A program made the translations under genes and the position numbers. From a virus (lineage: Duplodnaviria; Heunggongvirae; Uroviricota; Caudoviricetes): 20,880 nucleotides of DNA. Shown in pieces: positions 2,484 through 19,085 of this stretch (its first letter is position 1; each line of letters opens with the position of its first letter). The notes under the pieces were generated by a model. That model was not told the origin of the DNA, made no database searches, and saw nothing but the letters and a program-made list of their open reading frames with translations. The stretch is from IMG/VR virus record IMGVR_UViG_3300029080_000072. One strand, written 5' to 3'.

Positions 2484-2848
2484 ACATCCCGGTTTCTTCC
2501 ACCATCGCACCGGAAAAGCGACTATGAGGGTAACCCTGCGTCTGTCAGCACAGTAAAACCCGGTGTGCATCGTTTTTGATTATTCCCGCACACTCACGCA
2601 GAAGGAATTCCCCGTCGGGCTACGGTCATGGTTAATGCGGGAATACGGCGACGATACAGCGCAGCTAAAAGGGTAATGGACAGATAGAGCGGTTTATTTC
2701 ATTCCACAGGATTCTGAGTGCCCCCCTCCTCCAATAGGCTGAGCATCCACCTATATAGTTTTAGTTTTAATTTTCATCAATCCATTTAACTATCGTTTAA
2801 TTGTTGTCACATAGGATTCTGCCGTTTTTAACAATGCAGGATAATAAG

Positions 2849-3142
2849 ATGAAAAAAATGTTGTTTTCTGCCGCTCTGGCAATGCTTATTACAGGATGTG
2901 CTCAACAGACGTTTACTGTTGGAAACAAACCGACAGCAGTAACACCAAAGGAAACCATCACCCATCATTTCTTCGTTTCGGGAATTGGACAGGAGAAAAC
3001 TGTTGATGCAGCCAAAATTTGTGGCGGCGCAGAAAATGTTGTTAAAACAGAAACCCAGCAAACATTCGTAAATGGATTGCTCGGTTTTATTACTTTAGGC
3101 ATTTATACTCCGCTGGAAGCGCGGGTGTATTGCTCACAATAA
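2849..3142 (+). CDS. bor: Bor lipoprotein (serum-resistance moron)
   Basis: MKKMLFSAALAMLITGCAQQTFTV...GIYTPLEARVYCSQ has a lipobox LITGC and is near-identical to lambda Bor. I chose ATG 2849; the tracked start at 2801 is a non-ATG upstream extension. Confidence 0.92.
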   Translation: MKKMLFSAALAMLITGCAQQTFTVGNKPTAVTPKETITHHFFVSGIGQEKTVDAAKICGGAENVVKTETQQTFVNGLLGFITLGIYTPLEARVYCSQ

Positions 3143-4932: not shown

Positions 4933-6015
4933 ATGAAAAAATTAACAGTGGCAATTTCTGCTGTAGCTGCATCAGTACTGATGGCGATGTCTGCTCAGGC
5001 AGCTGAAATTTATAATAAAGACAGTAACAAGCTGGATCTATATGGGAAAGTTAATGCCAAGCACTACTTCTCCTCTAATGATGCAGATGATGGTGATACT
5101 ACTTATGCCCGTCTTGGCTTCAAAGGTGAAACCCAAATCAACGATCAACTGACTGGTTTCGGTCAGTGGGAATATGAATTCAAAGGCAACCGCGCTGAAT
5201 CTCAAGGCTCCTCCAAAGACAAAACCCGTCTTGCATTTGCAGGCCTGAAATTCGGGGACTACGGCTCAATCGATTACGGCCGTAACTACGGTGTAGCATA
5301 TGACATCGGTGCGTGGACTGACGTTCTGCCAGAATTCGGTGGCGATACCTGGACCCAAACAGATGTGTTCATGACTGGTCGCACCACTGGTGTTGCAACT
5401 TATCGTAACAACGACTTCTTTGGTCTGGTTGATGGTCTGAACTTTGCTGCTCAGTATCAGGGTAAAAATGACCGCACTGACGTAACTGAAGCTAATGGTG
5501 ATGGTTTCGGTTTCTCCACTACTTATGAGTATGAAGGATTCGGTGTAGGTGCAACCTATGCTAAATCTGACCGCACTAATAATCAGGTTATCTACGGTAA
5601 CAACAGCCTGAATGCATCTGGTCAAAATGCTGAAGTATGGGCAGCTGGTCTGAAATATGATGCGAACAACATCTATCTGGCTACCACCTATTCTGAAACC
5701 CAGAACATGACTGTTTTTGGTAATAACCATATTGCCAACAAAGCACAAAACTTCGAAGTAGTTGCACAATATCAGTTCGACTTCGGTCTGCGTCCGTCCG
5801 TTGCTTACCTGCAATCTAAAGGAAAAGACTTGGGTGCGTGGGGTGATCAGGACCTGGTTGAATATATTGATGTAGGTGCAACCTATTACTTCAACAAAAA
5901 TATGTCCACTTTTGTTGATTACAAAATCAACCTGATTGATAAGAGCGATTTCACGAAAGCATCTGGCGTTGCTACCGATGATATCGTTGCTGTAGGTATG
6001 GTTTACCAGTTCTAA
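4933..6015 (+). CDS. nmpC: General-diffusion porin of the NmpC/Lc/OmpD type. It is an intact moron, antisense to the late operon.
   Basis: 360 aa with signal peptide [23 protein letters not shown]|AEIYNKD. Porin hallmarks are [36 protein letters not shown] and the terminal ...VAVGMVYQF. It sits between Q and the holin, opposite in orientation, as nmpC does in DLP12. Confidence 0.92.
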
Positions 6016-8337: not shown

Positions 8338-8967
8338 CTAAAACAAGGATAAACTTTGCCCTGCTCCAGGCGTTGGCTTTACAAATGTTACATCTTTAAT
8401 TCTTTCGCCTAGGAGAAAAAATTTGTCCAAAGATAGCGATGGTATTGTTGCAAACCCATCAGCCCCCTTTTTCCTAGCAACCCCTCTCACGTCCATGAGA
8501 ATTCGCCCTAATACGTTCATACCATAATAGTTACCTTCTGGGTCTTTACTGGCACCCCAGAATTGGTCCTTCTCTGAGTGTTCCACGATGAAATGGTCGC
8601 CTGTACTGTCTAACAGCGCAAAGAACGTATCCCAGTTCTGGCATAATTTTACGCATACACACCACTTCATAATCGAAACTCGATTCTTATCCCATCCTGC
8701 GCGAGTTTTGGATTCAAACGATCTTGCGGTCTGCTTGGCTTCATAGGGGTTTCCTTGAGTAATGATGGCCTTTTGTATATCCGGATAGTCTGGATATCGG
8801 CATGCTTGGTAAAGGATTTCACTTGATTGAATAGGCAACCCATTGATTAACAATGGATATCCTTTAGCCATGTTGGAAAGCCCCCCCCATTTTTCGGTGG
8901 TTTTCCTGAAGGAAACTGTGTTCTGTAGCGGATATAATCTATAGCTCATACCACTCATTATACCCAT
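8338..8967 (-). CDS. NADAR-domain (YbiA/DUF1768-family) protein; predicted N-glycosidic ribosyl/ADP-ribosyl hydrolase
   Basis: 203-209 aa, with in-frame ATGs at 8967, 8958 and 8949. NADAR signature blocks are WGGLSNMA, IQSSEILYQACRYPD, GNPYEAKQTARS, GWDKNRVSIMKW, LLDSTGDHFIVEHSEKDQFWGA and YGMNVLGRILMDVR. It overlaps the upstream ORF's 3' end by 11-29 nt. Confidence 0.75.
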   Translation of the reverse strand: MGIMSGMSYRLYPLQNTVSFRKTTEKWGGLSNMAKGYPLLINGLPIQSSEILYQACRYPDYPDIQKAIITQGNPYEAKQTARSFESKTRAGWDKNRVSIMKWCVCVKLCQNWDTFFALLDSTGDHFIVEHSEKDQFWGASKDPEGNYYGMNVLGRILMDVRGVARKKGADGFATIPSLSLDKFFLLGERIKDVTFVKPTPGAGQSLSLF

Positions 8968-9970
8968 TCCGCTTCATTAGTGGATACCAGCAGTCCAATG
9001 CGGGAGCACCTGTTGGTTCATAATCTCCCCACCAAAAAGCCAGCGGCACATTATTCGGGCAATTTCGATAAGTAAATGTTGTTCCCCCAAAACCCAAACC
9101 GTCAAAAGTAGAAAAACCTAGAGGTTTGAGCACCTCACTAGGGGTTTTCCTGTGCAGCAAGATATTAAAGCCGACTTTAGTAAGGATAGATTCGAAACGA
9201 TCCCTTGAGGCTTCATTTCTAAAACTATCAGAAGAGGCATATCCATCTCTGAATACGCCTTTGTAAAGCTCACACTCCTCGAATTTCTCGGGAGTATCTA
9301 CACTATATTTCCTTGGCCAGAAAACACCTGATTGAGCAGAACGACTTTTTCGGTTTTCAACCTCACGCATACCACCATTCTTCACGTGTACAAAAATGTT
9401 TCTATCCTTAAAAATATATTCTAATCGTCTTTTTATATTATAGTCAGATAACGTATGAGATGAAAAAAAATATACATTGAATTTAATATCTCTTAAATTA
9501 AATTTTAAAACAAAATTACTTATCGATTTGATGGCCTTTTCTCCTGAAAACGACACATCATCAATATATACAAATGTATCAAATTTATTTACTTCATCTT
9601 GAGTTGATGATTCAGTAACGATGTTAAATTTGATCCCTACTGTTTCATAAAGAGATTTAAGCAATTCCTTCTGACTAGAACCTTTTTTTTGAATATCTAA
9701 AAAACCTGCATATCTGAAGAATTTCGCGTTCTTTTCACTTCTTGCAATGGCTTTTATTTTTCGTTGATATTGACTTTCGGATAGGTAACCTGCATTAAGT
9801 AGATAAAGCGTTTCATCTAAGATAAATCGTCTATCCTCCACTGCAAATTGCTTAATCCATTTGCTGACATGTTCAGAGTTCATACCTTCAGCCGGAGGAT
9901 ATTTATAATCGCTCAACTTTTCAGCAATTTTATTGATTACTTTTTCACCAGATAAAATATTCGAGGACAT
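8939..9970 (-). CDS. Hypothetical 343-aa protein with a phosphoribosyltransferase (PRTase)-like core; candidate effector/toxin
   Basis: This long ORF in very AT-rich DNA has an AGGA RBS 6 nt before ATG 9970. Residues 132-145, TFVYIDDVSFSGEK, form a hydrophobic strand, a DD pair and a small-residue loop, like the PRPP-binding loop of type-I PRTases. The N-terminal ~110 aa look helical. The C-terminal W/G-rich region (GFGGTTFTYRNCPNNVPLAFWWGDYEPTGAP) is unassigned. The coding call is confident; the functional call is tentative. Confidence 0.55.
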   Translation of the reverse strand: MSSNILSGEKVINKIAEKLSDYKYPPAEGMNSEHVSKWIKQFAVEDRRFILDETLYLLNAGYLSESQYQRKIKAIARSEKNAKFFRYAGFLDIQKKGSSQKELLKSLYETVGIKFNIVTESSTQDEVNKFDTFVYIDDVSFSGEKAIKSISNFVLKFNLRDIKFNVYFFSSHTLSDYNIKRRLEYIFKDRNIFVHVKNGGMREVENRKSRSAQSGVFWPRKYSVDTPEKFEECELYKGVFRDGYASSDSFRNEASRDRFESILTKVGFNILLHRKTPSEVLKPLGFSTFDGLGFGGTTFTYRNCPNNVPLAFWWGDYEPTGAPALDCWYPLMKRNGYNEWYEL

Positions 9971-10181: not shown

Positions 10182-10766
10182 TTAAGAATAAACATCAGTA
10201 ACTCGGGCCGGGCTTAATGCTACGGTTGGCGAATCACACTTGTTTCCCCATACGTCGAAACCGTGGGAGGATTTACGCGCAAAGAGCTCAATACGTGGAA
10301 GATTACCCAGCAACCGAACCAGCATTTCACGCACGCAGTCTGGTTTACGTGAGTGCTCATGTCGCGGCGAGGTGTAGTGCTGGATGATCGAGGCGTCCTG
10401 CTGTGGTGCCCGCTTACCCTTTACCGCGAAAAGACAATCTTCACGGTTCGCCCGGATCAGGTGTCCCATTCCCATCGCCGATTTGTCAGTTTGCTTCGGG
10501 TAGGTTTTATCCCAAGTGAAACCTTTCATTGTGATCAGGCGAAATCCCCAGGCATCGACGACTTTCATCGCCTCGAACGTTTGAGTTGGCAACCACCACA
10601 TCGCCAGCTGGCAGCTTTCTGCAACCCGCTCCCTTACTGGCAGCCAGCAGATATCCTGCACCGTCATAACCAAGTATTTATGCCCGGTGCCACGCTTACC
10701 AGAATTGCATTTATCCTCGTACGTCCAGGGCGGATCCGCTTAGATCAACGTGTATTTCTTGTTCAT
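10182..10766 (-). pseudogene. MT-A70-family DNA N6-adenine methyltransferase interrupted by an in-frame TAA at codon 9
   Basis: My own translation from ATG 10766 gives MNKKYTLI*ADPPWTYEDKCNSGKRGTGHKYLVMTVQDICWLPV...EHSRKPDCVREMLVRLLGNLPRIELFARKSSHGFDVWGN. The stop (minus-strand TAA, plus 10740..10742) replaces the Tyr of the I-Y-A-DPPW catalytic block. The tracked 163-aa ORF (10182..10673) lacks DPPW. Confidence 0.75.
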
Positions 10767-14180: not shown

Positions 14181-14450
14181 ATGAGTGATAAAAAACTTAT
14201 AAAAAAATCAAATAACTGTGTAGATGCATATGCTGATGCATTTGGATATTCATCTTTTGGGGAAGATGACGATCGCTTAGGCTCCATATCTTTCTTTCAG
14301 CATGTTACAGAATGGGGCGCTGATGGTAGTAATGACACTGAAAACGTAAAGTACAACATTGCAACAATTCGCATGACGGAAGATTTAATGCTTAAACTCG
14401 CTGACTTTATTCGCGATCAGCATGATAGAGCTAAAACCAATAAGTCATAA
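14181..14450 (+). CDS. Hypothetical acidic 89-aa protein, first ORF in the rexA position
   Basis: The ORF has a GGAAAGG RBS-like sequence and starts 80 bp after the cI stop, in AT-richer DNA. I recognise no family. Confidence 0.55.
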   Translation: MSDKKLIKKSNNCVDAYADAFGYSSFGEDDDRLGSISFFQHVTEWGADGSNDTENVKYNIATIRMTEDLMLKLADFIRDQHDRAKTNKS

Positions 14451-14458
14451 TATTAACA

Positions 14459-14899
14459 ATGAAACACGGTTATTACGAAGCTCCAAACCTAACTGAAAAG
14501 CTTGAACAAGCGGCAAGATCATCATCTTTGCACACTGCAGCATTTTCTCAATCAGCTGGTATGTCTGGCGGTAATGTACCTATGCTACAATCAAGTGGTA
14601 GCGGTGGCTCTGGGAGTAATAATGTGCTTGAATCGAAAGTTGCAAAGCTTGAGTCTGATGTGTCCTATATCCGACGTGACGTTGATGAGCTTAAGACAGA
14701 TGTCAAATCTATCGACAGAAACATGATCGCTGTTCTGGAGCGACTCGATTCAATAAAAGATTCACTAGCCAAAAAACCCTCCATCGATGCTGTCGATAGA
14801 AAGATTTCAGACGCAAAGCTTGCGGTATTGCTTGGTGTTCCAGCAATCATCGCTGCAGGAACAGGTCTTTATAAGCTATCAATGTACTTTTTTCTTTAG
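14459..14899 (+). CDS. Hypothetical 146-aa tail-anchored coiled-coil membrane protein (XhlA-like architecture), second ORF in the rexB position
   Basis: It starts 8 nt after the previous stop. It has a Gly/Ser-rich linker (SSGSGGSGSNN) and a heptad-like segment (LESKVAKLESDVSYIRRDVDELKTDVKSIDRNMIAVLERLDSIKDSL). A single C-terminal TM segment (LAVLLGVPAIIAAGTGLYKLSMYFFL) follows. Confidence 0.6.
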   Translation: MKHGYYEAPNLTEKLEQAARSSSLHTAAFSQSAGMSGGNVPMLQSSGSGGSGSNNVLESKVAKLESDVSYIRRDVDELKTDVKSIDRNMIAVLERLDSIKDSLAKKPSIDAVDRKISDAKLAVLLGVPAIIAAGTGLYKLSMYFFL

Positions 14900-15450: not shown

Positions 15451-15657
15451 ATGGTTCATCAACATTACGGAACGCAGACCGTTAATCGAGGTGCGGTCAT
15501 GCCAGGAATGCTGGTCAAACACAAAGATGGTACCTGGACTGCATCAGCTAATTTACGCGGACGGCTATATCTGCATCGCGGCATCGAGCGCACTTATACC
15601 CGTGATTTGCTCGTGGAAGTTTTTCTCGACGGACGCGGTAACGGCCTGAATCACTAA
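15451..15657 (+). CDS. Small hypothetical protein in the kil/cIII position, immediately upstream of gam
   Basis: ATG 15451 has a strong AGGAG RBS 5 nt upstream and gives 68 aa: [68 protein letters not shown]. An alternative in-frame ATG lies at 15367. Its position and size suggest a Kil/KilR-type host-killing peptide, but I cannot confirm the family. Confidence 0.5.
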
Positions 15658-15732
15658 TCCCCTTTCCTGTTTTCCTAATCAGCCTGGCATTTCGCGGGCG
15701 ATATTTTCACAGCCATTTTCAGGAGTTCAGCC

Positions 15733-16029
15733 ATGAACGCTTATTACATTCAGGATCGTCTTGAGGCTCAGAGCTGGGCACGTCACTACCAGCAGATCGC
15801 CCGTGAAGAGAAAGAGGCAGAACTGGCAGACGACATGGAAAAAGGCCTGCCCCAGCACCTGTTTGAATCGCTATGCATCGATCATTTGCAACGCCACGGG
15901 GCCAGCAAAAAAGCCATTACCCGTGCGTTTGATGACGATGTTGAGTTTCAGGAGCGCATGGCAGAACACATCCGGTACATGGTTGAAATCATTGCTCACC
16001 ACCAGTTTGATATTGATTCAGAGGTATAA
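15733..16029 (+). CDS. gam: Gam (RecBCD inhibitor), 98-aa GamS form
   Basis: [60 protein letters not shown]... is near-identical to remembered lambda Gam. It has an AGGAG RBS. Confidence 0.93.
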
Positions 16030-16034
16030 AACGG

Positions 16035-16820
16035 ATGAGTACAGCACTCGCAACGCTGGCAGGGAAGCTGGCTGAACGTGTCGGCATGGATTCTGTCGAC
16101 CCACAGGAACTGATCACCACTCTTCGCCAGACGGCATTTAAAGGTGATGCCAGCGATGCGCAGTTCATCGCATTGTTGATCGTCGCCAACCAGTACGGCC
16201 TTAATCCGTGGACGAAAGAAATTTACGCCTTCCCTGATAAGCAGAACGGCATTGTTCCGGTGGTGGGCGTTGATGGCTGGTCCCGCATCATCAATGAAAA
16301 CCAGCAGTTTGATGGTATGGACTTTGAGCAGGACAATGAATCCTGTACATGCCGGATTTACCGCAAGGACCGCAATCATCCGATCTGCGTCACCGAGTGG
16401 ATGGATGAATGCCGCCGCGAACCATTCAAAACCCGCGAAGGCAGAGAAATCACGGGGCCGTGGCAGTCGCATCCCAAACGGATGTTACGGCATAAAGCCA
16501 TGATTCAGTGTGCCCGTCTGGCCTTCGGATTTGCTGGTATCTATGACAAGGATGAAGCCGAGCGCATTGTCGAAAATACCGCATACACTGCAGAACGTCA
16601 GCCGGAACGCGACATCACTCCGGTTAACGATGAAACCATGCAGGAGATTAACACTCTGCTGATTGCCCTGGATAAAACATGGGATGACGACTTATTGCCG
16701 CTCTGTTCCCAGATATTTCGCCGCGACATTCGCGCATCGTCAGAACTGACACAGGCCGAAGCAGTGAAAGCTCTTGGATTCCTGAAACAGAAAGCCTCTG
16801 AGCAGAAGGTGGCTGCATGA
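16035..16820 (+). CDS. bet: Bet single-strand annealing recombinase
   Basis: 261 aa: [68 protein letters not shown]... This is essentially lambda Bet. Confidence 0.95.
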
Positions 16821-17497
16821 CACCGGACATTATCCTGCAGCGTACCGGGATCGACGTGAGAGCTGTCGAACAGGGAGATGATGCGTGGAACAAATTACGA
16901 CTCGGCGTCATCACGGCTTCAGAAGTTCACAATGTGATAGCAAAACCCCGCTCCGGTAAAAAGTGGCCTGACATGAAAATGTCCTACTTTCACACCCTGC
17001 TGGCTGAGATTTGCACCGGTGTGGCTCCGGAAGTTAACGCTAAGGCGCTGGCCTGGGGAAAACAGTACGAGAATGACGCCAGAGCCCTGTTTGAGTTTAC
17101 TTCCGGCGTGAATGTTACTGAATCCCCGATCATCTATCGCGACGAAAGTATGCGCACCGCCTGCTCTCCCGATGGTTTATGCAGTGACGGCAACGGCCTT
17201 GAGCTGAAATGCCCGTTTACCTCCCGGGATTTCATGAAGTTCCGGCTCGGTGGTTTCGAGGCCATAAAGTCGGCTTACATGGCCCAGGTGCAGTACAGCA
17301 TGTGGGTGACACGAAAAGATGCCTGGTACTTTGCCAACTATGACCCGCGTATGAAGCGTGAAGGACTGCATTATGTCGTGGTTGAGCGGGATGAAAAGTA
17401 CATGGCGAGTTTTGACGAGATGGTGCCGGAGTTCATCGAAAAAATGGACGAGGCACTGGCTGAAATTGGTTTTGTATTTGGGGAGCAATGGCGATGA
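16817..17497 (+). CDS. exo: Lambda exonuclease (Exo)
   Basis: 226 aa: [64 protein letters not shown]... This is essentially lambda Exo. An ATGA overlap joins it to bet. Confidence 0.95.
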
Positions 17498-17652
17498 CGC
17501 ATCCTCACGATAATATCCGGGTAGGCGCGATCACTTTCGTCTACTCCATTACAAAGCGAGGCTGGGTATTTCCCGGCCTTTCTGTTATCAGAAATCCACT
17601 GAAAGCACAGCGGCTGGCTGAGAAGATAAATAATAAACAGGAGGATATATGA
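17494..17652 (+). CDS. 52-aa ORF, lambda orf60a-like with a replaced C-terminus (below the track's cutoff)
   Basis: My own translation gives [55 protein letters not shown] 17494 overlaps the exo stop (ATGA) and its stop overlaps the next ATG (ATATGA). The N-terminal ~45 aa match my memory of lambda orf60a, which follows exo. Confidence 0.5.
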
Positions 17653-18713
17653 GTCAGGTTGGTAATCATTCATTCGAATTTCCGGCATCGCAAGGTGTAC
17701 AGGGTGGTACTGTTACACTCTTCCTTACCATACCAGGAAGATCGCTGGCTCGTTTCCTCGCTTCAGATAATTACGGCCATACACTGGAACGCTCTCAGCG
17801 AGAAATTAATCCAAATCGAGTACGAAAATTTTTAAATTATCTCACTAACGCAGACTCAAGAAATGAGTCTTTTATCATTCCCCCTCTCGTAGGTAACTGT
17901 GATTCGAATATAGAATTTGTACCGTTTGGCAACACAAATGTTGGTATAGCCAGAATTCCCCTCGACGCCGAAATAAAACTTTTTGATGGCCAACATCGTG
18001 CAGCTGGCATTGAGATATTTTGCCGAAGTTCCCCATCAACGCTCATGGTTCCCATGATGCTTACAATGAATCTGCCGCTAAAAACCCGGCAGCAGTTCTT
18101 TTCGGACATAAATAACAACGTTTCTAAGCCATCAGCGACCATCAATATGGCGTATAACGGCCGGGATGATATTGCTCAGGGAATGATATCCTTCCTGACC
18201 CAACATACTGTATTTGCCGATATAACCGATTTTGAACACAACGTAGTGCCATTAAAAAGTAATATGTGGGTGAGTTTCAAGGCACTCACTGATGCAACGT
18301 CAAAGTTTGCTAGGAACGGCAATCAACAACTTGAAATGGGATATATAGAATCTGTCTGGGAGGCATGGATTACACTAACTCAGATTGACTCAATCCGACA
18401 TGGTGTACACCACGCTACGTACAAGCGCGATTATATTCAGTTCCATGGAGTAATGATTAACGCTTTCGGTTTTGCGGTTCAACAGATGATGGTTAATCAT
18501 TCCATCGCAGAAATAACTTCTATGATCGAAAAACTCTGTGCAACTACCAGCTCTGCAGAAAGAGAGGATTTTTTTCTGATGGATAACTGGGCGGGGATCT
18601 GCACGAAAGCCAGCCAGGAAAAACTATCGGTTATTGCCAATGTGGCAGCGCAGAAAGCAGCAGCAAACAGACTGATACAAGCTTTTACCAAAGGAAGTCT
18701 GGAAACAACTTAA
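17649..18713 (+). CDS. DGQHR-domain protein (DndB/ParB-Srx-like superfamily), stand-alone
   Basis: 354 aa with the literal DGQHR motif at residues 113-117 (KLFDGQHRAAGIE, nt 17985..17999). Upstream is QREINPNRVRKF and downstream is FFSDINNNVSKPS, as in DndB-type proteins. It has a helical C-terminal half, AGGAG RBS and AT-richer composition than bet/exo. Confidence 0.8.
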   Translation: MSQVGNHSFEFPASQGVQGGTVTLFLTIPGRSLARFLASDNYGHTLERSQREINPNRVRKFLNYLTNADSRNESFIIPPLVGNCDSNIEFVPFGNTNVGIARIPLDAEIKLFDGQHRAAGIEIFCRSSPSTLMVPMMLTMNLPLKTRQQFFSDINNNVSKPSATINMAYNGRDDIAQGMISFLTQHTVFADITDFEHNVVPLKSNMWVSFKALTDATSKFARNGNQQLEMGYIESVWEAWITLTQIDSIRHGVHHATYKRDYIQFHGVMINAFGFAVQQMMVNHSIAEITSMIEKLCATTSSAEREDFFLMDNWAGICTKASQEKLSVIANVAAQKAAANRLIQAFTKGSLETT

Positions 18714-18790
18714 TGAATCAACATTGTCTCATATCAGCATGCTGTACGGCGTCTTTAAGGAACGGTGAGCATGAAAAACAAAATCATCAT

Positions 18791-18811
18791 GGAGCTACAG
18801 GCTCCTTTTTT
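18791..18811 (+). terminator. Weak candidate intrinsic terminator after the DGQHR gene
   Basis: GGAGC-TACAG-GCTCC followed by TTTTTT. The stem is only 5 bp. Confidence 0.35.
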
Positions 18812-18866
18812 ATTATTCGCATTCACCCTCAAGCGTATTAACCAACAATTCAGGGATTAATGAAAG

Positions 18867-19085
18867 ATGGCAGACATCATTGATTCAGCATCAGAAATTG
18901 AAGAATTACAGCGCAACACAGCAATAAAAATGCGCCGCCTGAACCACCAGGCTATATCTGCCACTCATTGTTGTGAGTGTGGCGATCCGCTAGATGAACG
19001 AAGACGCCTGGCCGTTCAGGGTTGTCGGACTTGTGCAAGTTGCCAGGAGGAGATCGAACTTAAGAACAAACAATGGGGACTGTGA
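18867..19085 (+). CDS. TraR/DksA-family C4 zinc-finger protein
   Basis: 72 aa with a CxxC...CxxC motif (HCCECGDPLDERRRLAVQGCRTCASCQ), typical of phage TraR/DksA-like proteins. Confidence 0.8.
   Translation: MADIIDSASEIEELQRNTAIKMRRLNHQAISATHCCECGDPLDERRRLAVQGCRTCASCQEEIELKNKQWGL

Follow-up and report, generated by a model that had tools for sequence, protein, structure and literature searches.

A stand-alone DGQHR-domain, DndB-like gene on a swapped cassette in the exo-xis region of a lambdoid prophage, and its dnd-free relatives on phages and plasmids

The stretch of DNA discussed here, referred to as the window, is the whole 20,880 nucleotides (nt) of the IMG/VR record IMGVR_UViG_3300029080_000072 (Caudoviricetes). 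It is a lambdoid prophage at icd, identical to positions 2916049-2936928 of the Escherichia coli E94 genome (NZ_CP119740.1), and is defective, with a truncated terminase gene and pseudogenes in the RefSeq annotation. The early-left operon of this prophage includes a gene for a protein of 354 amino acids (aa) in the DGQHR domain family, to which DndB also belongs. The gene is a true orphan with regard to dnd genes, and so is the clade of related genes that we find on phages and plasmids. The gene itself was already catalogued, its product being labelled 'DGQHR domain-containing protein' in RefSeq (WP_001678641.1) and falling in a PHROGs family of unknown function (phrog_7901, 712.8 bits). By analogy with better known relatives we suggest, as the reading that we favour, that the protein may have a role in establishment, most likely by way of counter-restriction or support of DNA modification.

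The window protein belongs to the DGQHR domain family and has every defining feature that could be tested. It matches the TIGR03187 model for the domain with 189.4 bits (cutoff 58.85, residues 13-281) and the DndB model PF14072 with 158.4 bits (cutoff 29.1), and the profile searches proposed in a first-pass annotation of the sequence thus came out in favour of the assignment. The family is characterised by a near-invariant DGQHR pentapeptide, a QR pair and the motif FxxxN (PMC4619093). The first-pass annotation had reported the pentapeptide and its flanking blocks in this open reading frame (ORF), and they are confirmed by the ORF list, the sequence and an alignment of 28 homologues of 51-72% identity, in which 86 positions are invariant, including RSQRE (residues 48-52), FDGQHR (112-117) and QFFSDINNN-SKP (149-161). 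DGQHR is the counterpart of the nucleotide-phosphate loop seen as GxxR in ParB and as GCHR in sulfiredoxin (Srx) (PMC10164549, PMC4619093), and the window protein probably binds a nucleotide through this loop, as its ParB-fold relatives do with ATP, GTP or CTP (PMC12704722, PMC10164549). Modelled secondary structure gives approximate boundaries, with the ParB/Srx-type nucleotide-binding fold in residues 1-170, a helical part common to DndB in 171-284, and a tail beyond the stretch that can be aligned with DndB in 285-354. A sequence search of PDB gave no relative (the best match, at E 0.61, was a spurious one to a monooxygenase), and in BFVD there were only low-TM matches, to viral DndB-like and GmrSD-N proteins.

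With regard to known systems, the window protein shares with DndB/DptB (TIGR03233) the PF14072/TIGR03187 domain, the QR, DGQHR and FxxxN blocks and a similar length (354 as against 361 aa). However it is only 23% identical to DndB of E. coli NADC 6564 (residues 5-284, E 5e-26), reaches 108.6 bits where the equivalog cutoff is 328, and has a C-terminal tail of its own; furthermore its clade is on phages and plasmids in early operons, and in about 50 loci is not beside dndCDE. As the equivalog cutoff is missed and no dndC-dndD-dndE follows, we do not regard it as DndB proper, and it is not DGQHR_dnd_1 (TIGR04172), the second DGQHR protein of dnd islands, for which the score is 17.7 bits and the cutoff 450. 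DpdB, which is the ATPase that partners the DNA transglycosylase DpdA in 7-deazaguanine modification, was also rejected: it carries DGQQR and not DGQHR (PMC10164549) and groups with DUF262/SspE-like proteins, no TGT/DpdA-like (dpdA) or dpdC gene is annotated in the window, and the enzymes associated with the window clade, when there are any, are methyltransferases. The DUF262 (DGQQR) modules of SspE, DndI, GmrSD and BrxU are in restriction effectors with a C-terminal HNH/DUF1524 nuclease. The window protein has none, and assignment to the GmrSD/SspE/DndI type was rejected for want of a C-terminal His-Me nuclease domain. Nor is it a canonical ParB of the ParABS type, since it matches neither PF02195 nor HTH_ParB and the window has no parA.

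Comparison with lambda shows that the gene arrived as a cassette in the orf63-orf61 slot of the lambdoid exo-xis region. Window positions 15651-17651 match lambda 33193-31194 at 96.8% identity, and 18733-19062 match lambda 30747-30418 at 95.5% (blastn). Because the homology breaks at 17651 and returns at 18733, the segment between is foreign; it stands in place of lambda 31193-30748, 446 bp that hold orf63 and orf61. On the left the homology decays from about 17639 and stops on a shared ATG, which is the start of lambda orf63, so that the mosaic junction expected near 17625-17650 is indeed there; the right junction is at 18732/18733. The left junction reaches the 3' end of the preceding gene, and for this reason its DUF1317 product, 88% identical to lambda orf60a, has a different final 4 residues and is 8 aa shorter, as had been supposed in describing this 52-aa ORF as orf60a with its C-terminus replaced. 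The higher AT content noted for the DGQHR gene was also found (GC 43.0%, and 39.7% at third codon positions, against 52.5% for bet and 52.1% for exo), and in general the proposal of a ParB/Srx-fold, DGQHR/DndB-like protein on a swapped exo-xis cassette is supported. The slot has other occupants elsewhere: right after the orf60a homologue there is a PF05869 Dam methyltransferase gene in PhiR30_1, and in phage SfI a gene (gp34) with a putative annotation as queuine tRNA-ribosyltransferase, gp34 giving no match in Pfam.

The operon runs on the + strand in the order kil, gam, bet, exo, the DUF1317 gene, the DGQHR gene, a TraR/DksA zinc-finger gene, DUF4222, xis and int. The chain of two start/stop overlaps that had been described from exo onwards is present, the exo stop overlapping the orf60a-like start in ATGA at 17494-17497 and the orf60a-like stop overlapping the DGQHR start in ATGA at 17649-17652. 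Promoter-like sites between 15000 and 19800 are no commoner than in shuffled sequence, and the + strand has none immediately ahead of the DGQHR gene. Given the lack of a promoter of its own above chance, and the translational coupling to exo and orf60a, we infer that the gene is transcribed from pL and its product made early after infection or induction and not in the repressed lysogen, which supports the delayed-early expression proposed at the outset. We also observed that in E. coli WCHEC020031 (locus L001, 18748-19172) the repressor/pL region and the beginning of bet have been lost from the prophage, while exo and the DUF1317, DGQHR, TraR, xis and int genes are still 100% identical; in that strain the DGQHR gene thus persists without its normal promoter.

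The likely timing of expression bears on one alternative, that the gene serves defence, superinfection exclusion or competition between elements, attacking or blocking the DNA of competitors in the manner of Osa, a ParB/Srx-fold fertility inhibitor, or of the DUF262 modules of SspE, DndI and GmrSD. Accessory slots of prophages often hold defence genes, the ParB/Srx-fold NTPase domains of SspE and DndI sense modified DNA (PMC11662687), the protein matches the PADLOC model for DndB (127 bits), and the copy is kept at 99% or more identity in 284 E. coli genomes, decayed prophages included. However that PADLOC model is for an accessory component and not an effector, and a known defence system was rejected on this ground; moreover the protein has no nuclease or other effector domain, the neighbouring genes are for anti-defence or establishment and not for defence, and the early operon to which the gene is coupled is a repressed one. 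Since no promoter of its own was found, the defence or exclusion role in the lysogen offered in the first-pass annotation is disfavoured, and we regard this alternative as improbable.

The absence of dnd, dpd and ssp partner genes, noted at first from the sequence of the window, extends beyond it. The annotation shows no dnd, dpt, TGT/DpdA-like or ssp genes in the prophage or in the 14 kb to each side of it, and no DpdC gene in prophage or flanks, although no DpdA profile was run. Searches by tblastn with E. coli DndC, DndD, DndE, DptF, DptG and DptH found nothing in the window and nothing within 10 kb on either side of about 50 loci carrying relatives of 30-99% identity, and no genes for a second DGQHR protein were found near the relatives. 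As a control, a representative of 25% identity (P0217) sits in a canonical dndB-C-D-E cluster, and neighbour joining places the two canonical DndBs outside the group of orphans. The general statement that DGQHR proteins are normally embedded in dnd or dpd clusters is therefore too narrow, as the orphan clade is present on 1,071 plasmids and in several phage groups.

The same independence is seen at the level of the host. Among 5,426 complete E. coli genomes the DGQHR gene is present in 284 (5%), in all at 99% or more identity, and dndC in 207; the overlap, obtained with a joined-sequence query that hit 481 genomes, is 10 genomes where 10.8 are expected by chance, with the reservation that clonal lineages inflate such counts, that megablast misses dndC below about 80% identity and that the comparison covers dndC and not ssp or dpd. 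With the overlap at chance, there is neither dependence of the gene on host dnd in E. coli nor avoidance of it. This bears on the possibility that the protein is a specific counter to phosphorothioate (PT) immunity (Dnd-DptFGH, DndI or Ssp), a viral mimic of DndB that disturbs DndB-controlled modification or PT sensing. Homology to DndB over most of the protein is in its favour, and evasion of DndFGH by phages, through different means, is known (PMC11662687). However carriage in E. coli shows no statistical link with dndC, the family is frequent among hosts and plasmids where dnd is rare (Klebsiella IncL/M), and repression of modification would leave unmodified phage DNA exposed to DptFGH. It is also unlikely that the operator specificity of DndB is conserved, because the equivalog score is so far under its cutoff. 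We consider a dedicated anti-Dnd or anti-Ssp role highly improbable. Of the three roles first put forward for the gene (exclusion or defence, sensing of modified DNA, and anti-restriction aimed at Dnd/Dpt-type hosts), the anti-restriction direction is favoured by gene context, with nothing to make it specific to Dnd or Dpt.

Full-length relatives of 51-72% identity are found in Escherichia, Salmonella, Klebsiella, Serratia, Hafnia, Tatumella and other genera. Orthologues of 59-66% identity lie in early-left operons of prophages, with S24 repressor, RecT or DUF2303/YfdP recombination genes, SSB, an Rv2179c-like exonuclease and integrase as neighbours. There are also copies in the Salmonella phages SPN1S and SPC32H (65%), in Klebsiella phages (61%) and in Vibrio phages of about 83 kb (33%). 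This conservation bears on a further possibility, that the gene is a decaying passenger with no current function. The prophage is certainly defective, the copy on IncL/M plasmids is often disrupted by IS1B, and one relative (L021) is frameshifted. However the reading frame in the window is intact and of full length, every signature motif is among the positions invariant across many enterobacterial genera, and the gene is present in functional phages (SPN1S and the Klebsiella phages). Judged from sequence conservation the passenger explanation is largely refuted, and we give it very little credence.

In PLSDB a relative is carried by 1,071 plasmids (1.5%), of which 885 are conjugative, and IncL/M plasmids are included. 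Plasmid relatives of 40-42% identity are in blocks with PsiA, 'Antirestrict' (ArdB/KlcA), RadC-JAB, DUF1281, an N6_Mtase protein and ParM, and a conjugative plasmid carries one of 52% identity, with TopoIII, H-NS, pil genes and a shufflon-type recombinase as its neighbours. In an IncL/M plasmid the order is ParM ... RadC-JAB, HTH, DGQHR ... DUF4942 ... Hha ... antirestriction, ssb ... mobA, traI (HTH being helix-turn-helix), with the DGQHR, antirestriction and ssb genes all oriented towards the relaxase genes mobA/traI, the oriT itself not being mapped. This layout fits the leading-region anti-defence islands of Samuel et al. (PMC11541004), where a supplementary table has an entry, not commented on, for one small 'DGQHR domain-containing' family (7 members). 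ORFs flanking the surveyed loci include those for ArdA, ArdC-N with a metallopeptidase domain, RadC and PsiA, with ArdA and ArdC domains among those directly upstream. Placement in the part of the element that is expressed first on entry (early operons or leading regions), in the company of ssb, psi and anti-restriction genes, is thus a feature of the clade.

Some other loci deserve mention for themselves. In Klebsiella and Citrobacter prophages (L044-L050) a separate HTH_ParB protein of 262-269 aa is encoded upstream in the same early operon, its gene overlapping the DGQHR start in the Klebsiella loci and lying about 0.8 kb upstream in those of Citrobacter, so that two distinct members of the ParB superfamily are encoded near each other in these phages; in the Klebsiella loci the genes that follow downstream are for a dATP/dGTP pyrophosphohydrolase (PF04447) and the Rv2179c-like exonuclease. 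Rheinheimera pacifica has tandem DGQHR paralogues of 451 and 341 aa in a prophage-like locus (L034, 3861-6323). In many near-identical 63.6-kb IncL/M plasmids from Klebsiella, Enterobacter, Citrobacter and E. coli (for example NZ_CP068296.1; L063, 11989-14048) the DGQHR homologue is split by IS1B, and as other IncL/M plasmids (L058) have an intact allele, the two make a natural knock-out pair.

DNA methyltransferase genes recur next to the DGQHR gene, in about a quarter of loci. For 45 loci, with simple ORF calling, we took the ORFs on the same strand as the gene, the two on its downstream side and the two on its upstream side. Downstream, 12 of 83 ORFs encode DNA methyltransferases of five Pfam families (four MT-A70, three PF05869 Dam, two D12, two C5 and one N6_N4; there is also one DUF4942), as against 1 of 85 upstream (Fisher p = 0.001, for loci that are not phylogenetically independent and ORF calls that are crude). 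The downstream MT-A70 gene of SPN1S has a 4-nt overlap with the stop of the DGQHR gene, and in the Vibrio phage Va_PF430-3_p42 the order is DGQHR, C5 methylase, a small ORF and integrase. No methyltransferase gene follows the DGQHR gene in the window, unlike the case of its close orthologues, which often have an intact MT-A70 gene directly downstream. There is an MT-A70 DNA methyltransferase gene elsewhere in the window (10182-10766, - strand), adjoining the replication gene P and annotated as a pseudogene with an internal stop.

The establishment role that we suggest might work as follows. The protein, made from pL early after infection or induction, would be nucleotide-gated and would engage DNA as the element enters or wakes, and would then help a DNA-modifying enzyme, direct it or set its timing, or protect the entering DNA in some other way. 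As no methyltransferase gene adjoins it in the prophage discussed here, it would have to work by itself or together with a partner that is distant or belongs to the host. The anti-restriction or establishment direction is favoured because the genes around relatives, in early operons and leading regions, include those for anti-restriction, SOS inhibition, SSB and orphan methyltransferases. A role as a modification helper is put forward by analogy with DndB beside DndCDE, DpdB beside DpdA, where DpdA needs DpdB's ATPase activity (PMC10164549), and phage fusions of ParB-fold proteins with methyltransferases. Such fusions are enriched in prophages, and orphan ParB-fold proteins on mobile elements were already known to be common (PMC12704722). 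The fusions resemble our case in combining a ParB/Srx fold with an orphan methyltransferase on mobile elements, with an anti-defence role suspected, and differ in that here the genes are separate, and not adjacent in the window, and that the protein is of the DGQHR branch and not a PF02195 ParBc.

A number of observations weigh against this suggestion, in addition to the limits of the methyltransferase survey already given. The adjacency could reflect two kinds of cargo sharing a hotspot next to int, and in the prophage itself the sole methyltransferase gene is the MT-A70 pseudogene, 7 kb away and on the opposite strand. Many of the 284 E. coli copies are in decayed prophages without the pL region, and the homologue is dispensable in the 63.6-kb IncL/M plasmids, as shown by the IS1B insertion. 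When all ORFs within 6 kb on either side of 38 relatives were clustered there was no constant partner, the commonest neighbour family being in 8 of the 38 loci, and a fixed two-gene system was rejected on the same figure. DNA binding by the window protein is assumed from its family, and neither its near-neutral isoelectric point of 6.55 (5.2-6.6 in relatives) nor a Pfam scan, which found no HTH or nuclease domain in it, lends it any support. Finally, a full-text search of the literature gave no published function for orphan phage or plasmid DGQHR proteins and no study of them. Nor did it find any account of a dnd-independent mobile clade, of placement in early operons or leading regions, or of the methyltransferase association; one candidate paper of 2021 on dnd and prophages (PMC8569181) turned out not to be about viral DndB.

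The other explanation that has to be weighed is that the protein regulates transcription or host physiology, binding specific sites on the host or phage chromosome and reprogramming expression early after entry, as do DndB or HerB. DndB is an ATP-modulated DNA-binding repressor of dndBCDE (PMC4507180; PMC8569181). HerB (YfjB, from the leading region of the F plasmid) is zygotically induced, ParB-like and CTP-binding, and binds chromosomal sites and rewires host transcription (PMC13370423). It resembles the window protein in being an orphan ParB-fold protein of a mobile element, with ssb, psi and anti-restriction genes around it and expression as soon as the element enters. A regulator would need no fixed partner gene, and the common early-expression position, the fold, and the accessory exo-xis site replacing orf63 and orf61 would all fit; it could also cover effects on lysis-lysogeny and induction that have been ascribed to the exo-xis region. 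However HerB has 652 aa in four domains, with HTH and dimerisation core, and no detectable sequence relationship to our 354-aa protein, which lacks a ParBc or HTH_ParB match, so that the kinship is in fold only and HerB is an analogue. There is also no HTH or other recognised DNA-reading domain in the window protein, and regulation does not by itself explain the recurrent downstream methyltransferases. We think a regulatory role on the whole unlikely, though it ranks first among the alternatives.

The establishment reading can be extended to the whole clade. On this view the orphan DGQHR proteins on phages and conjugative plasmids would together make up a general establishment module that had gone unrecognised, a nucleotide-gated DNA clamp or scanner on the incoming genome that licenses or speeds protective modification by an orphan methyltransferase or a host enzyme, or that shields the DNA directly. 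In this general form the proposal is speculative, and we think it rather improbable that all of it will hold.

Features of the DGQHR gene and its surroundings in the window
Feature	Position	Strand	Basis
exo (lambda exonuclease)	16817..17497	+	ORF list; RefSeq annotation; 96.8% nt identity to lambda; upstream in the same operon
orf60a-like DUF1317 gene, 52 aa	17494..17652	+	PF07026, 106.9 bits; end altered and shortened by the cassette junction
Shine-Dalgarno-like GGAGGA	17640..17645	+	3 nt ahead of the ATG of the DGQHR gene; read from the sequence
Stand-alone DGQHR-domain (DndB-like) gene, 354 aa	17649..18713	+	
Foreign AT-rich cassette, 1,081 bp	17652..18732	.	blastn against lambda; junction alignment; GC 43% against 52%
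RSQRE ('QR pair' block), residues 48-52	17790..17804	+	invariant in 28 homologues
DGQHR pentapeptide, residues 113-117	17985..17999	+	codons gat ggc caa cat cgt; invariant in 28 homologues
FFSDINNN (FxxxN block), residues 150-157	18096..18119	+	invariant in 28 homologues
Terminator-like hairpin GGAGCTACAGGCTCC and T-run	18791..18805	+	78 nt past the stop of the DGQHR gene; consensus scan only
TraR/DksA zinc-finger gene (lambda orf73-like)	18867..19085	+	PF01258, 30.2 bits; annotation; next operon gene after the DGQHR gene

The terminator-like hairpin falls within the segment shared with lambda, as the homology to lambda is back from 18733.

Other parts of the prophage and its surroundings also carry accessory genes. 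In the nin region (8338-9970, - strand) there is an overlapping gene pair for a PRTase-CE phosphoribosyltransferase-like protein (PF24390, 134.9 bits, with a weak PADLOC match to PRTase_III-A) and a NADAR-domain protein (PF08719, 82.4 bits, with a weak PADLOC match to PDC-M42C); the pair looks like a conflict module, for defence or anti-defence, rather than a core phage function. Directly 3' of the S24 repressor gene are two small genes (89 and 146 aa; 14181-14899, + strand), in the slot where lambdoid phages keep exclusion genes expressed in the lysogen, and their products gave no convincing Pfam or PADLOC match. Lysogenic-conversion cargo is represented on the + strand by genes for an Iss/Bor-type serum-survival lipoprotein and an OmpC-family porin (2801-3142 and 4933-6015). 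To the left of the window in E. coli E94 (L002, 5514-8587) a McrC gene and an AAA ATPase gene make up a McrBC-like type IV restriction pair, which is between the icd duplication and the prophage remnant and is present also in strain WCHEC020031.

The DGQHR/DndB domain has so far been treated as a part of phosphorothioation islands, and here we have a large dnd-free sister clade on mobile elements, widespread and in clinically relevant settings. If the genes give no phenotype, that of the window would be an ordinary accessory gene of the lambdoid exo-xis hotspot. We suggest nevertheless that the family is a candidate, and one easy to test, for a new function in counter-restriction or establishment, and if the methyltransferase link proves functional it would hint at a general role of DndB- and DpdB-type proteins. 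Were the general form of the proposal to be true, there would be a new anti-restriction mechanism common to lambdoid phages and the clinically important IncL/M plasmids, and an ancestral function of DndB- and DpdB-type proteins as helpers of modification would be indicated.

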